Virus record (IMG/VR): IMGVR_UViG_3300032285_003899
Coordinates: 18,127 to 82,126 of that record
Source of the DNA: a virus
Taxonomy: Duplodnaviria; Caudoviricetes
DNA: 64,000 nucleotides
Direction: 5' to 3' (one strand)
Position 1 is the first letter of the stretch. Each line of letters starts with the position of its first letter. The notes under the pieces were generated by a model that ran no database searches, was not told the origin of the DNA, and was given only the letters and a program-made list of their open reading frames with translations. Positions 22,230 to 26,479 of this stretch are shown here, in pieces. Position numbers and translations under genes: made by a program.

Positions 22230-22271
22230 TTTTTATTATTTCTTTTTACCATTATCTGTGTAATAACAGAT

Positions 22272-23231
22272 ATGACAACCAAACTACCAATATTAATAAT
22301 ATTGGTTTTTTTATTTACTGGATGTTTCTCTACTATAAGACCAGCGAAACAAATTGATGATAATCAAAAAATAATAGAAAAACAAGAAAAGAAAGTAGAC
22401 AGCACGTTAGTCGAAATGGAAAAAAACGACAAAAGCAAGAGGATACAAACCTCTGGTCTTTCTGTCGGCATTGAACATTCTCTTAATCAAATAACAAATG
22501 CGCCTGTTCAAGTTGACACGGCGAGAAAATTAAATGAAAGAGTCATTTCTATTGTCGGTTCTCCACACATTGATGAAATAAAAAGAATCAAAGCTACTGT
22601 AGATCTTTTAAATTCAGCTTTAGTTGAAGAACGCAGAAAAGGAGAAGAACTGCTTGCTCAACGCGATGATATAATTAATAAACTTCAAAAAGAAAAGTCA
22701 GAGTTAAATCAAAAATACGATGATCAACTTTGGCAATTAACCGATAAAGCTAAAGAAGTAGCTAAAGAAGCTGATCAAAATAAAGCAGTATTAGATTCAA
22801 TGAGCGGAATGTTTGGTCTAAATGCTGTAATGTGGGGATTAAAGAAGTTTGTTGTTAGCGCATTGACCGCAATAGTTGTATTTGTAGTCGTTTTTGTTCT
22901 TCTTCGTCTTCTCGCTACAGTTCATCCTGCCGCTGCCGCCGCGTTTTCTATATTTAATATGCTAGGATCAGCAGTAATTTCCATAGTTAAAGCTTTGACC
23001 CCAAAAGCATTTGAGATGAATAATTTTGCAACAAAAGATAAAGTAGAAGAATTCAAATCTCCTCTCGTAAAAATCGTAGATGTTATTCAAGAGCTTAAAG
23101 AAAAACAAAAAGAGTCTCCTGATAAAATTTATCCATTAAATGAGATTTTAAAACGTTTTGATAAAGAAATGGATAGCCATGAAAAAGATTTAATCGACGA
23201 TATTCTTAAAGAACAAAAATGGATCAAATAA
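22272..23231 (+). CDS. lipoprotein with a coiled coil and C-terminal TM segments (u-spanin-like architecture)
   Basis: lipobox LFTG-C; long coiled coil; hydrophobic VVSALTAIVVFVVVFVLL. Confidence 0.6.
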   Translation: MTTKLPILIILVFLFTGCFSTIRPAKQIDDNQKIIEKQEKKVDSTLVEMEKNDKSKRIQTSGLSVGIEHSLNQITNAPVQVDTARKLNERVISIVGSPHIDEIKRIKATVDLLNSALVEERRKGEELLAQRDDIINKLQKEKSELNQKYDDQLWQLTDKAKEVAKEADQNKAVLDSMSGMFGLNAVMWGLKKFVVSALTAIVVFVVVFVLLRLLATVHPAAAAAFSIFNMLGSAVISIVKALTPKAFEMNNFATKDKVEEFKSPLVKIVDVIQELKEKQKESPDKIYPLNEILKRFDKEMDSHEKDLIDDILKEQKWIK

Positions 23232-23233
23232 TT

Positions 23234-23614
23234 ATGGACACAAACAACGTACATATCATATCTCAACAAGTATTAGAATCTACAGGCCAAGATCTTACTG
23301 GAAAGTATGTTTGGTTTTTCATTGTCGGACTTATAGCGTTGATGTTCAAATCTAGCATTGAAAAGTTTGCTGCTGCTTTATTTATGTTTGTTGGAAACGA
23401 TTATAAAGAAGACGATGTAGTATATGTTGATGGAAAACCGGGAAGAATTGTAAGAGTAGGTTTAACCAAGACTGTATTTTTTATTTATGATGTTGTAGAT
23501 GGCAAAGTTCTTGGTGGCAGCAAACTCGTAGTTCAAAACGAGAGATTATCTGGTCTTAACATTGAAAAACCTTTACCCAACTTGGATCTTAGCAGATTCA
23601 AGAAAAATGATTAA
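23234..23614 (+). CDS. minimal MscS-family membrane protein
   Basis: one TM segment, then SIEKFAAALFMF..YKEDDVVYVDGKPGRIVRVGLTKT..VVQNERL. Confidence 0.65.
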   Translation: MDTNNVHIISQQVLESTGQDLTGKYVWFFIVGLIALMFKSSIEKFAAALFMFVGNDYKEDDVVYVDGKPGRIVRVGLTKTVFFIYDVVDGKVLGGSKLVVQNERLSGLNIEKPLPNLDLSRFKKND

Positions 23615-23616
23615 AG

Positions 23617-24258
23617 ATGAGGAGAATACTTTTTTCTCTATTATTATTTACAAATTTATTTGCGGCAGAATTTAAATCGGCAAATTATTATTCTAAAAAC
23701 TATTTATTCGATGCTCAAGTATATTCAGTCAACACTTTTATATCTGAAAATAGTATCAGCCATCAATTAGGGGATTTTACTCCCCATCTTGATTTTGTAC
23801 AATATCAAGGCTTAGATCAATATAAAGAAAGCGATTTTGGATTCGGCAGTGAGTATGAATTATCAGAGAAGTTAAATTTAAATACTGGTAGTTGGTACTA
23901 TTACTATTATAGTGCTGGCGATCATTATTTTGAACCATACTTATCATTTACTTATGATTGGATACTATCGCCAACAATTTATTTTAGTGTTATAACTTAT
24001 AATAACACTCCAAGAGCAACCATTAGTTTTGACTACAGCAAAGATATTACTGAAAAACTACAATTAAATATAAAACCTGTAATTGGAACTGCGGATTATG
24101 ATATAAGATATGGTTATTATGGAATGGTATTTATTTTCGATTACAACATAAATAAAAATTTTACGCTATACCTTGGTGGTGAAGTAGATAAACCATTTAG
24201 CTCACCCGACAATTCAATTGTTTATACTTATTCATCTGGAATCAAAATATCTTTATGA
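23617..24258 (+). CDS. putative outer-membrane beta-barrel protein
   Basis: signal peptide, aromatic-rich alternating beta-strands, C-terminus SGIKISL. Confidence 0.65.
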   Translation: MRRILFSLLLFTNLFAAEFKSANYYSKNYLFDAQVYSVNTFISENSISHQLGDFTPHLDFVQYQGLDQYKESDFGFGSEYELSEKLNLNTGSWYYYYYSAGDHYFEPYLSFTYDWILSPTIYFSVITYNNTPRATISFDYSKDITEKLQLNIKPVIGTADYDIRYGYYGMVFIFDYNINKNFTLYLGGEVDKPFSSPDNSIVYTYSSGIKISL

Positions 24259-25706
24259 AACGTATTAAGTTTAATTTAAGATTTGCTTTATCTACTAGTA
24301 CAATCTTTATTTTAATACTAGTAAGCATGGTATATTTCTTTTTATTGATATTTGCAATTGAAGATATCGCAAAAAACAGTTTAAAAAGAAGCTTGAATAC
24401 GTCTGTTAATATTTGTAGTAGTATTCTTGATTCAAATGAAATTGAAAAATTAACTAAATATGAACAAGAAAAAAATGCTATATTTGTTAATTACAGAAAA
24501 GCCATTAAAGAAATAAAAAAAGAAGTCGAGGATATTAAATTTGTTTATGTTGTTAGACAGACAGGCACAAATATTACTTATATAATAGATTGTGGCGATA
24601 ATATATCTGAACAAGCTAAATTAGGCGAAATATATGATGACGCTGGAGATGGATTAAAAGAATTATTTAATAACCCAATCGAAGGCATAACATTTGAAAA
24701 AGAATATTATACAGATAAATGGGGTACATTTTTATCTGCATACAAACCAATATTCAAAAATGGTAAAATAATATATGTTGTTTGTAGCGATATCAAATCT
24801 ATTGATGTCGAAAAATATATATCTAATTACAAAAAGAAATTCACTTTTGCTTTTTTATTATTACTTGTAATTATATTTCCAATTATATTTTCTATAACAA
24901 ATATGATTAGAAGACCTCTTAATAAACTAAGAGATGAAATTCTTAAATTAAAAGATTTGGATGTTGATGAGCATATTAATTTTAAAAGCAGCATTAGTGA
25001 AGTTAACGACATGATCGATGCTACAGATAAAGTTAAAACTGGATTAAGATCGTTTTCAAAATACGTCCCCGACAAAGTTGTTAAACAATTAATAAGTCAA
25101 GGCAAAGATGCAAAAATTGGAGGAGAAAAAGAATATGTAACAATATTATTTAGCGACATCGAAGGATTCACAACCATATCAGAAAATAATGAAACTCAAG
25201 AAGTTGTTACTGCATTGAATGAGTATTTTGATATTTATGTTAGATCTTTAGAGGAAAGCGGCGCAACTGTTGATAAATTTATTGGTGATGCTGTAATGGC
25301 ATTTTGGAACGCTCCAAGCAAGGTTGAAAATCATGAATTTGTTGCTGTCAAAACTGCAATGAAAATTGTCAACGAAATCAATCAGTTAAATGAAAAATGG
25401 AAACTAGAAGGTAAAAAATTCATATTTAAAACCAGAATCGGTATTAACTCTGGTGAAGTAATTGTAGGTAATATTGGATCAACTAATCGTATTAATTATA
25501 CTATTACGGGTGATAGTGTAAATTTAGCCTCAAGATTAGAAGGATCAAATAAACAATATAATACTAAAATTTTGGTCAGTGAAGTCGTATACAACAAAAC
25601 AAACGATTTAATACAATATAATTATATTGATTATGTCAAAGTTAAAGGTAAAGAGTTGTATGTAAAAATATATCAACCAGTTCAATTAATCGATAATGTA
25701 TTATGA
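24255..25706 (+). CDS. membrane-bound class III adenylate cyclase with a periplasmic (Cache-like) sensor and HAMP-like linker
   Basis: two TM segments; LFSDIEGFT, DKFIGDAVM, RIGINSG, YTITGDSVNLASRLE. Confidence 0.93.
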   Translation: MKRIKFNLRFALSTSTIFILILVSMVYFFLLIFAIEDIAKNSLKRSLNTSVNICSSILDSNEIEKLTKYEQEKNAIFVNYRKAIKEIKKEVEDIKFVYVVRQTGTNITYIIDCGDNISEQAKLGEIYDDAGDGLKELFNNPIEGITFEKEYYTDKWGTFLSAYKPIFKNGKIIYVVCSDIKSIDVEKYISNYKKKFTFAFLLLLVIIFPIIFSITNMIRRPLNKLRDEILKLKDLDVDEHINFKSSISEVNDMIDATDKVKTGLRSFSKYVPDKVVKQLISQGKDAKIGGEKEYVTILFSDIEGFTTISENNETQEVVTALNEYFDIYVRSLEESGATVDKFIGDAVMAFWNAPSKVENHEFVAVKTAMKIVNEINQLNEKWKLEGKKFIFKTRIGINSGEVIVGNIGSTNRINYTITGDSVNLASRLEGSNKQYNTKILVSEVVYNKTNDLIQYNYIDYVKVKGKELYVKIYQPVQLIDNVL

Positions 25707-26479
25707 AACTCGCAACTCCAAAAAGCATCAAACAAGCATCATTAAAACTATTTAACAAACAAGATATAAGATTATTAGTTCTTTATAACTATCTAATCGA
25801 AATCTGCAATTACGGAGATAATAAATACCATAAACTTGAAACCAAATATCATGATCTAAATCATTTTTTAACAAGCGCATCTGTATTTCTTGATATATAT
25901 ACAAACATTGTTGAGAAAAATATAATTAAATTAAATGAACAAGATTTTTTTTGCGGTGTTGTTGCCGTAATGTACCACGATATAGGTTTTTTAAAATCAA
26001 AAGAAGACAAGAACGGAACTGGAGCGCAATATATTAATACTCATGTAGAAAGAGGCTGTAATTTTATAAGAAATAATTTCGACAATATTTTAACTAAAGA
26101 AGAAAAAACAAGAATTTGCGAATTAATAATGGTAACAGATTACTTCAAAAAGACAGAAAATTCACAAATAGATCATATAGGAGCTTGCGTGGCTTTGGGT
26201 GATTGGCTTAGTCAAATGAGCGATGAACAATATGTACAGAAACTTGATAAACTATATGAAGAATTCGATGAGTTTCAGAGATATCATAATTTATTTATGT
26301 ATAACGGATTAGAAGATTTGGTAAAAAAGACCCCCGGTTTTTGGTATAAATTAGTTAAACCATTATTAGATAATAAGTTTTACGGATTATACGAACACGC
26401 TTCAAATAATTACATCTTAAGTATAGAAAAAAACATCGATAAATTAGTTAAAGAATACAATTTAAATCACGCTATTTAA
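25703..26479 (+). CDS. HD-domain phosphohydrolase (putative cyclic-nucleotide phosphodiesterase)
   Basis: YHDLNH, YHDIGF, HVERG, LGDWLSQ; ATGA-coupled to the cyclase. Confidence 0.75.
   Translation: MKLATPKSIKQASLKLFNKQDIRLLVLYNYLIEICNYGDNKYHKLETKYHDLNHFLTSASVFLDIYTNIVEKNIIKLNEQDFFCGVVAVMYHDIGFLKSKEDKNGTGAQYINTHVERGCNFIRNNFDNILTKEEKTRICELIMVTDYFKKTENSQIDHIGACVALGDWLSQMSDEQYVQKLDKLYEEFDEFQRYHNLFMYNGLEDLVKKTPGFWYKLVKPLLDNKFYGLYEHASNNYILSIEKNIDKLVKEYNLNHAI

Follow-up and report, generated by a model that had tools for sequence, protein, structure and literature searches.

A mobile five-gene phage cassette with a predicted receptor-type cyclase and a phosphodiesterase-like HD hydrolase

In this study, we analyzed a 64,000-nucleotide stretch of phage DNA (Caudoviricetes; positions 18,127 to 82,126 of the IMG/VR record IMGVR_UViG_3300032285_003899), which is called the window in this text. 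We found that five open reading frames (ORFs) on its plus strand, g1 to g5, which span positions 22272-26479 (4.2 kb), behave as one horizontally mobile phage cassette, moving together between very different large phages. Sequence comparison identified g4 as a predicted inner-membrane (IM), two-transmembrane (TM) receptor-type class III cyclase, the purine Lys/Thr active site of which is intact. The structural model of g5 indicated a cytoplasmic HD metallo-hydrolase with the complete fold of the class I 3',5'-cyclic nucleotide monophosphate (cNMP) phosphodiesterases (PDEs). On balance, we think it somewhat probable that the cassette installs a ligand-regulated envelope adenylyl cyclase and a cytoplasmic cNMP phosphodiesterase in its host, presumably a Gram-negative bacterium, and phages with the cassette probably rewire the second-messenger signalling of the host.

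Results

The mobility of the cassette was seen in the comparison with a related phage genome, the 295,831-bp contig G404 that carries locus L003 (CheckV, 100% complete), which we call the 296-kb relative. An unbroken 4,094-nt alignment with 78.8% nucleotide identity starts just inside g1 and extends to the end of g5, and no DNA similarity was found between the two phages beyond the g1 and g5 borders, where the upstream signal also differs. The five cassette proteins are 72-89% identical to those of the 296-kb relative. Only 14 other ORFs of the window were matched in that genome, at identities of up to 62% (median 41%), and the window polymerase, helicase, protease, rIIA and rIIB had no match there at E<=1e-10 and >=60% coverage. 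Because the alignment ends at the g1 and g5 borders of otherwise nearly unrelated phages, the mobile unit is exactly the five genes.

Searches with the cyclase and the HD protein yielded 22 IMG/VR loci, in which the order g1-g2-g3-g4-g5 recurs with 54-89% protein identity and the flanks differ from locus to locus. The genes g3 and g4 were present or absent together; they are absent in L019, L020 and L023, where g2 and g5 stay, and g2 was found in every cassette variant. Another gene takes the place of g1 in L021 and L023. Across these loci, the putative barrel gene g3 and the predicted cyclase gene g4 make up one optional unit, with the HD gene being always present; since the HD gene is kept without g3-g4, the HD enzyme appears to be independent of the phage cyclase. 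The cyclase family comprises more than 120 metagenome clusters at 90% identity, on contigs of up to 196 kb, and close g4 relatives came from viral and metagenome contigs only, none being seen among 185,579 species genomes. An earlier sequence-only reading of this DNA, made without database searches, had set out the case in which the module would occur only as host genes with no conserved phage synteny. What we found is synteny in more than 20 viral contigs and no close cellular copy of the cyclase.

The dN/dS values of about 0.04-0.1, with synonymous sites near saturation, indicated that all five genes are under strong purifying selection; for g1, dN was 0.21 against the 296-kb relative and dS was saturated. 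The low dN/dS and the near-saturated dS mean that the genes are functional and that the transfer was not very recent.

The sequence-only reading had also suggested that the last three genes were acquired as a cassette, as they looked more AT-rich than the core genes. The unit is mobile as proposed, but it takes in all five genes, as the nearly unrelated phage revealed, and base composition gave no support. The genes g3-g5 are indeed AT-richer (GC content 0.27-0.29 vs 0.338). However, their GC at third codon positions (0.18-0.23) is the same as that of neighbouring genes, so a foreign origin read from base composition was rejected, and the low GC is due to the amino-acid composition of the proteins.

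Some of the relatives carry further genes in or near the cassette. A 591-amino-acid (aa) protein that combines ankyrin repeats (Pfam 2e-37) with a cyclase-like domain at its C-terminus, in which the candidate metal Asp, Asn and Arg residues are retained, is encoded between g2 and g3 (L011:4534-6309, L021:3136-4911 and L023:5002-6777). L023 is without g3-g4 but has this ankyrin-cyclase gene (X591). In the 296-kb genome it lies at G404 257478-257744, 16 kb from the cassette, and no homologue was found in the window. In L019, a cyclase-less variant, a gene for a 2H/LigT-type phosphoesterase (L019:5078-5599; Pfam 4.6e-10) is located directly upstream of g1. The flanks of L011 (9273-10046 and 1038-2189) encode a Mom-family protein (Pfam 4.7e-44) and a GP88-family protein.

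The predicted layout of g4 consists of TM1 (residues 17-35), a periplasmic part of about 158 residues (38-195), TM2 (196-214), a HAMP-like linker (217-290) and the catalytic domain (291-470). Pfam PF00211 matched residues 292-467 with 92.8 bits (2.6e-26; cut-off 21.9). The metal-binding pair D301/D345, the adenine pair K341/T416 and the pair N423/R427 align to Pseudomonas aeruginosa CyaB and are invariant in 121 relatives, which confirmed the cyclase residue set that the sequence-only reading had picked out. CyaB is also the best solved relative (3r5g; 6.6e-30, 107 bits), and like the other top ones (bPAC and other photoactivated cyclases, and Spirulina CyaC) it is a true adenylyl cyclase. The alignments to bPAC and to a phytochrome-cyclase fusion start near residue 260 and take in the helical element before the catalytic domain. 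The product of g4 would most likely be cyclic AMP (cAMP). Class IIIb enzymes, which g4 resembles, are often responsive to bicarbonate or CO2.

The sensor of g4 has a probable Cache-like fold, placed in a TM/Cache-like/TM/HAMP-like/cyclase layout. The nearest Atlas clusters of the N-terminal half are HAMP clusters (63-98% HAMP) and single-Cache clusters, and the same half is weakly similar to the N-termini of sensor kinases (CreC and AtoS, 1.6e-6). Pfam HAMP was matched after TM2 with 13.8 bits (E 0.074; cut-off 25). The description of g4 as a sensor cyclase therefore stands as to the TM-periplasmic-TM-HAMP layout, but the Cache-like fold is only a lead.

The HD protein g5 carries the residues H50, H54, H92, D93, D167 and Q171, which are invariant in 62 relatives. 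Its matches to known families were weak (PHROG phosphohydrolase, 1.2e-7; Pfam HD-CE, 0.046), and Pfam HD was matched by 21 of the 62 relatives. When the g5 family profile was compared with PDB, the best matches were PDE5 and PDE10 (E 0.003) with YHxxxH and HD in register, so that YHDLNH and HD of g5 align to YHNWRH and HD of PDE5. The AlphaFold2 (AF2) model of g5 had a predicted local distance difference test (pLDDT) score of 95.7, and the top 50 Foldseek matches of the model were all class I cNMP phosphodiesterases. Comparison by VIA gave Z 17-19 over 225-231 residues for the class I PDEs, with PDE10A at Z 19.0 over 225 residues (root-mean-square deviation 3.1 A). A Foldseek-free comparison with 48,161 representative chains agreed with this finding, as class I PDEs took the first 17 places (Z 14.8-17.4, about 230 residues). 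Alarmone hydrolases (Z about 10) and HD-GYP proteins (about 9.5) aligned over about 170 residues only.

Among 1.84 billion representatives, 487 relatives of g5 were found, most of them of 280-310 residues and about 30% identical, and the close HD cluster of g5 has 355 members. The protein is related to, and not a member of, the Npun_R2479 family of HD metalloproteins (NCBIfam NF045583; 52.3 bits, cut-off 400). Six of ten long bacterial relatives are fusions of HD with GAF, and one (P0226) is a HisKA-REC-cyclase-HD protein. In a genome scan that used a 10-sequence alignment, the bacterial g5-related HD family was frequent in Verrucomicrobiota (Opitutales), where a genome often has several copies. 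The fused or long bacterial relatives noted were P0171, P0224, P0226, P0235, P0244, P0248 and P0257, and the bacterial loci are L025-L104. Taken together, it is somewhat probable that g5 hydrolyses 3',5'-cyclic nucleotides. The sequence-only proposal of an HD protein acting as a cNMP phosphodiesterase is thus credible, both by the fold and by the domain fusions of the bacterial relatives, and the HD family may represent a branch of the class I phosphodiesterase fold in prokaryotes.

The third gene, g3, probably encodes an outer-membrane (OM) beta-barrel. Its sequence includes a signal peptide and about 12-14 alternating (dyad) stretches, Tyr makes up 12% of it, and the nearest clusters of the protein in the Atlas, which is based on a language model, are MipA, Gcw_chp, Porin_4 and KdgM, with scores of 0.96-0.99. 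Its family of 42 clusters was seen only in this phage group; the C-terminal residue is L, or F in the two most distant members. The signal peptide and the small-porin neighbours are in favour of the OM barrel that had been proposed, but no match was found in Pfam, PHROG or NCBIfam. BLASTP showed no similarity between g3 and the barrel-like neighbour g7 that would make them paralogous barrels.

The genes g1 and g2 are the constant envelope partners of the cassette, g1 being a predicted lipoprotein with a membrane hairpin. The lipobox Cys of g1 is followed by about 170 helical or coiled-coil periplasmic residues, two hydrophobic helices (193-211 and 221-242) and a conserved 77-aa tail, which agreed with the earlier description of a lipoprotein with TM segments; no family in Pfam, PHROG or NCBIfam was above threshold. 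The start of g2 is most likely 23234 and not the upstream ATG at 23219, as every relative starts at the equivalent MDTN. The sequence-only reading took g2 for a mini-MscS. This was rejected as unsupported, because the lone Pfam match, to MS_channel_2nd, remained below threshold (E 0.027, 15 bits; cut-off 20.2) and a PDB search with the g2 family profile (E up to 10) gave no MscS chain. The 249-aa P0339, in which g2 is joined to the N-terminus of a membrane fusion protein, came from a single 1-kb contig; it looks like an assembly chimera and was ignored. The features of the region are listed in Table 1.

Table 1. Features of the cassette and of its downstream neighbours (positions in the window; the last column gives the basis or a remark).
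Feature	Position	Strand	Basis or remark
GTGTAA signal	22258..22263	+	8 nt ahead of g1 ATG
g1, 319-aa lipoprotein	22272..23231	+	lipobox Cys conserved in relatives
g2, 126-aa small membrane protein, beta-rich C-terminal half	23234..23614	+	92% mean column identity, 7 relatives
g3, 213-aa exported Tyr-rich protein, probable small OM beta-barrel	23617..24258	+	signal peptide, Atlas neighbours
g4, 483-aa receptor-type class III (IIIb-like) nucleotidyl cyclase, predicted	24255..25706	+	Pfam PF00211 Guanylate_cyc
g4 periplasmic sensor domain, Cache/PDC-like, probable	24366..24839	+	Atlas sCache_3 neighbours, 0.93-0.95
g4 cyclase homology domain	25125..25664	+	D301, D345, K341, T416, N423, R427
g5, 258-aa predicted cytoplasmic HD-superfamily hydrolase, class I 3',5'-cNMP phosphodiesterase fold	25703..26479	+	motifs and model
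g6, 73-aa coiled-coil protein, C-terminal hydrophobic helix	26529..26750	+	phrog_5225, function unknown
g7, 234-aa OM-barrel-like protein, signal peptide, ends ...RWNF	26802..27506	+	Pfam OMP_b-brl E 0.0045, sub-threshold
Terminator-like hairpin and T-run	27532..27553	+	9 pairs, 6 G-C, then TTTTTTT

The junctions between the five genes were read directly. The TAA stop of g1 (23229-23231) and the stop of g2 (23612-23614) are each followed by a gap of 2 nt before the next ATG (23234 and 23617, respectively), and the overlaps of g3 with g4 and of g4 with g5 are both ATGA (24255-24258 and 25703-25706). The earlier observation of five tightly coupled genes after one GTGTAA motif was therefore correct. 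The five genes sit between two GTGTAA signals (22258 and 26515) and share the first of them. The motif as such is not enriched in the window (26 copies vs 25 expected), but six of the 13 plus-strand copies lie exactly 8 nt ahead of the ATG of a real ORF, namely those at 14384, 20905 (before the virion structural protein gene, vsp), 22258 (g1), 26515 (g6), 35474 and 49530. The copies at 2771 and 13015 have a spacing of 9-10 nt. The fixed spacing indicated an expression signal of this phage despite the unenriched total, and it suggests that the motif is a signal peculiar to this phage, either for translation start or as a near-leaderless promoter. As GTGTAA is missing upstream of the cassette in the 296-kb relative, the signal is a feature of this phage rather than of the cassette.

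Downstream of the cassette, g6 is a neighbour outside the mobile unit, with its own GTGTAA, and it is not kept beside the cassette in relatives. The next gene, g7, looks like a separately acquired moron, also outside the cassette. It is a composition outlier (GC 0.42 vs 0.34 for the window), and a 45% identical copy is located elsewhere in the 296-kb relative. A search of 401 Verrucomicrobiota genomes with g7 gave a single marginal match (E 6.7e-4, 27% identity), and no match was found in three genomes that carry HD relatives. The hairpin at 27532 is the strongest terminator-like structure of the region; it follows g6 and g7 and closes the envelope gene block. An 82-aa antisense ORF inside g4 (24827-25075, minus strand) occurs in all relatives, but it is not a gene; its apparent conservation comes from the overlap with the conserved cyclase gene.

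The phage DNA of the window has a GC content of about 34% and 11 tRNA genes, and it encodes a DnaB-like helicase, a DnaE-type polymerase, a Lon-like protease, rIIA and rIIB. The polymerase, the Lon-like ATP-dependent protease and rIIA/rIIB are located at 8071-10623, 10620-13025 and 33243-36606. Just upstream of the five-gene block lies vsp, whose product has 63-68% identity to a cyanomyovirus protein. The sequence-only reading had called the operon phage-encoded, and the adjoining virion protein, the tRNA genes and rIIA/rIIB in the window bear this out. The window polymerase is at most about 28% identical to those of isolate phages. Among 50,697 isolate phages, the five-gene region had no megablast match, and g1 and g5 had none by tblastn. 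The phage appears to belong to an uncultured large-phage lineage.

Discussion

We propose that an extracytoplasmic cue would bind to the periplasmic Cache-like domain of g4, which is highly conserved. The cue may be delivered or relayed by g3, the co-inherited and translationally coupled OM barrel; the co-inheritance of g3 and g4 together with their ATGA overlap suggests that the barrel serves the sensor. The signal would then pass through TM2, the HAMP-like linker and the helical element, by which the homodimeric cyclase would be switched and cAMP would be made. By hydrolysing 3',5'-cyclic nucleotides, g5 may reset the phage-made signal, clear the cNMP pool of the host, or both. The output would go through the cAMP receptors of the host, which is presumed because no phage-encoded cNMP receptor was found. 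The reprogramming of CRP signalling and the control of lysis timing, which the sequence-only reading had attached to such a circuit, are pure conjecture.

Several observations weigh against a ligand-regulated cyclase paired with a phosphodiesterase. A co-expressed cyclase and PDE would constitute a futile cycle unless one of them is regulated. In L019 and L020, which have only g1-g2-g5, no cyclase domain was found within 7 kb and the HD gene is retained. A cyclase was present within 5 kb at one of 80 bacterial HD loci, mostly from Verrucomicrobiota. It follows from these two results that the cyclase and the HD enzyme are not an obligatory pair. In addition, no cNMP-binding domain was found in the complete genome of the 296-kb relative. 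The complete on/off circuit that had been proposed at first is therefore not upheld, as the complete relative genome showed no cNMP receptor and the HD gene persists without the cyclase. As for g5 itself, generic HD hydrolases also align well to its core of about 170 residues (2pq7, Z 14.8; YpgQ, 13.6), and similar HD folds occur in many jumbo phages with no known cyclase. The protein is below the threshold of Pfam PF00233 (PDEase_I), with no match; PDEase_I appeared in five of the 62 relatives, weakly, with a best E of 6e-4 (P0171, 20.7 bits; cut-off 24.8). It has HDIGF in the place of HDxxH of the class I PDEs, so that the second His is missing, and no glutamine-switch position was identified. 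The fold of the g4 sensor is also no more than probable: the sole PDB profile match of the domain was the dCache domain of Tlp3 at E 0.058, and Pfam gave no Cache match (E up to 10). In the AF2 model of residues 1-290, built with 12 close relatives, helices and strands follow a PDC-like order at low confidence (pLDDT 40), and this model was kept out of the fold search.

The main rival is that the HD enzyme serves counter-defence, whereas Pycsar-like exclusion and lysis are less likely. Apyc1 (MBL fold) and Acb1 (2H fold) are phage-encoded cyclic-nucleotide hydrolases with an anti-defence role. In the same manner, g5 would be a non-homologous analogue of Apyc1 that destroys the 3',5'-cNMPs of host immunity, such as the cyclic CMP and cyclic UMP (cCMP/cUMP) of Pycsar or alarms of the cAMP/cGMP type, and the cyclase and the barrel would be an optional add-on. 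We consider this explanation fairly unlikely. It would account for the retention of g5 in the cyclase-less L019 and L020, and HD proteins folded in a similar way are widespread in jumbo phages that lack cyclases. The 2H/LigT phosphoesterase found directly upstream of g1 in one variant (L019) has the fold of the anti-CBASS enzyme Acb1, and the PDE-like fold of g5 points to mononucleotide 3',5'-cyclic substrates. However, the fold of g5 differs from those of Apyc1 and Acb1, no sequence relation to them was seen, and the bacterial relatives of g5 are ordinary signalling-type proteins with GAF and cyclase fusions, not genes of defence islands. Moreover, g5 overlaps the cyclase stop codon in most copies of the cassette, suggesting joint use, and counter-defence leaves g1-g4 unexplained.

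A more far-reaching form of the signalling proposal is that g3 and the periplasmic domain of g4 constitute a trans-envelope sensor, by which an external cue is reported as cAMP and guides the timing or the output of infection. The cue may be a superinfecting phage, the host density, a nutrient or CO2. In this form, g5 would set the time constant, and the HD family would be a lineage of the 'eukaryotic' class I phosphodiesterases in prokaryotes and viruses, GAF partners included. We regard this whole as unlikely.

The cassette could also serve exclusion or abortive infection of the Pycsar type, in which the sensor cyclase detects a superinfecting phage or envelope damage, the cNMP activates g1 and g2 as effectors, and g5 keeps the system silent until the trigger. 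Two conserved small membrane proteins always accompany the cyclase, and mobile, patchy spread among unrelated phages is typical of conflict systems. The PADLOC model of PycC was matched by g4 with 122.8 bits (4e-36), but three unrelated class III cyclases scored 37-90 bits on the same model, and the assignment of g4 as a Pycsar cyclase from this match was rejected as generic. The PDB entry 7r65 (labelled 'Adenylate/guanylate cyclase'), which we take to be a solved Pycsar cyclase (PycC), matched g4 poorly, with 25 bits, and g4 keeps the Lys/Thr purine pair. Neither g1 nor g2 has a PADLOC match, and Pfam showed no cNMP-binding domain in g1, g2, g3 or g5. The genes g1-g2 also occur where the cyclase is missing. 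We find this explanation quite unlikely.

Finally, a lysis module, with g1 as a unimolecular spanin, g2 as a holin- or channel-like protein and the cyclase and HD proteins tuning the lysis timing, is very improbable: g1 does combine an N-terminal lipoprotein signal with C-terminal membrane helices and about 170 helical residues that could bridge OM and IM, and the block as a whole is directed to the envelope and comes after a virion gene, but g1, g2, g6 and the genes right beside them matched no spanin, holin or endolysin family (Pfam, PHROG), no adjacent endolysin was found, the two hydrophobic helices and conserved 77-residue tail of g1 are unlike known unimolecular spanins, and g1 is replaced in L021 and L023. 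The lysis-like genes of the sequence-only reading were thus not supported.

Returning to the ligand-regulated cyclase and phosphodiesterase, parts of this arrangement are known from other systems. The curli (type VIII secretion system, T8SS) clusters of pelagiphages were reported to contain an OM pore, FecR, a histidine kinase and an adenylate cyclase (PMC9599517). The cluster of HTVC008M (gp014-gp019) and our cassette are both phage-encoded same-strand blocks with an OM channel (in the cassette, the probable barrel g3), envelope proteins and a membrane class III cyclase, and both are shared across unrelated phages. The HTVC008M block ends in the cyclase, whose catalytic domain is 36% identical to that of g4. 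Unlike the curli clusters, the cassette has no CsgG/CsgF/CsgB, FecR or histidine kinase; its putative barrel belongs to a small orphan family, the N-terminal sensor is different, and the PDE-like HD enzyme of the cassette is not found beside the cyclase in HTVC008M.

A similar logic was documented in Sinorhizobium meliloti, in which the OM-associated protein NsrA is needed for signalling to the IM receptor cyclases CyaD1, CyaD2 and CyaK, with the phosphodiesterase SpdA and the regulator Clr in the pathway (PMC7529298, PMC4222275). The NsrA-CyaK cascade and the cassette would have in common an OM protein, an IM receptor cyclase and a phosphodiesterase. However, the cyclases of that cascade carry CHASE2, for which g4 had no match, and SpdA is a class III-type 2',3'-cNMP PDE, whereas g5 is an HD protein. 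The cellular S. meliloti system has a dedicated Crp-like receptor, Clr, and none was found in the complete 296-kb relative of the viral cassette.

At the level of the single proteins, g4 resembles the class IIIb cyclase CyaB (3r5g) in its Asp/Asp, Lys/Thr and Asn/Arg residues and in the membrane anchor and linker helix before the catalytic domain. It differs from CyaB in having a TM, about 158 periplasmic residues, a second TM and a HAMP-like linker in the place of MASE2, and in being phage-encoded. The resemblance of g5 to the class I PDEs (PDE1-11, RhoPDE and the trypanosomatid enzymes) extends over the whole-domain fold and the YHxxxH...HD...D motif, and its GAF-fused relatives are parallel to PDE2/5/6/10/11. 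On the other hand, g5 is only 12-16% identical to these enzymes, has 258 vs about 320 residues and HDIGF for HDxxH, and its distribution is bacterial and phage. A class III adenylyl cyclase combined with a class I PDE was reported in Marchantia CAPE (PMC8115329). CAPE and the bacterial P0226 are similar to the cassette in holding a class III cyclase and a class I-type PDE fold in one expression unit, but both are single polypeptides, while the cassette has two overlapping genes and its HD protein is able to stand alone.

Conclusions

Annotated phage cyclases and phage cyclic-nucleotide hydrolases of other folds are already known. A receptor cyclase with a class-I-PDE-like HD enzyme and private envelope proteins as a cassette mobile among distant phages of jumbo size was not found in the literature searched. 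The cassette is abundant in metagenomes and strongly selected, and its movement between phages that share almost nothing else means that it must be of benefit in different viral backgrounds. The class I PDE fold is usually treated as eukaryotic, and the HD family points to relatives of it in bacteria and viruses. With five genes in 4.2 kb, this compact system makes it possible to ask whether bacterial viruses sense the outside through the envelope of their host, and what cAMP does for a phage.

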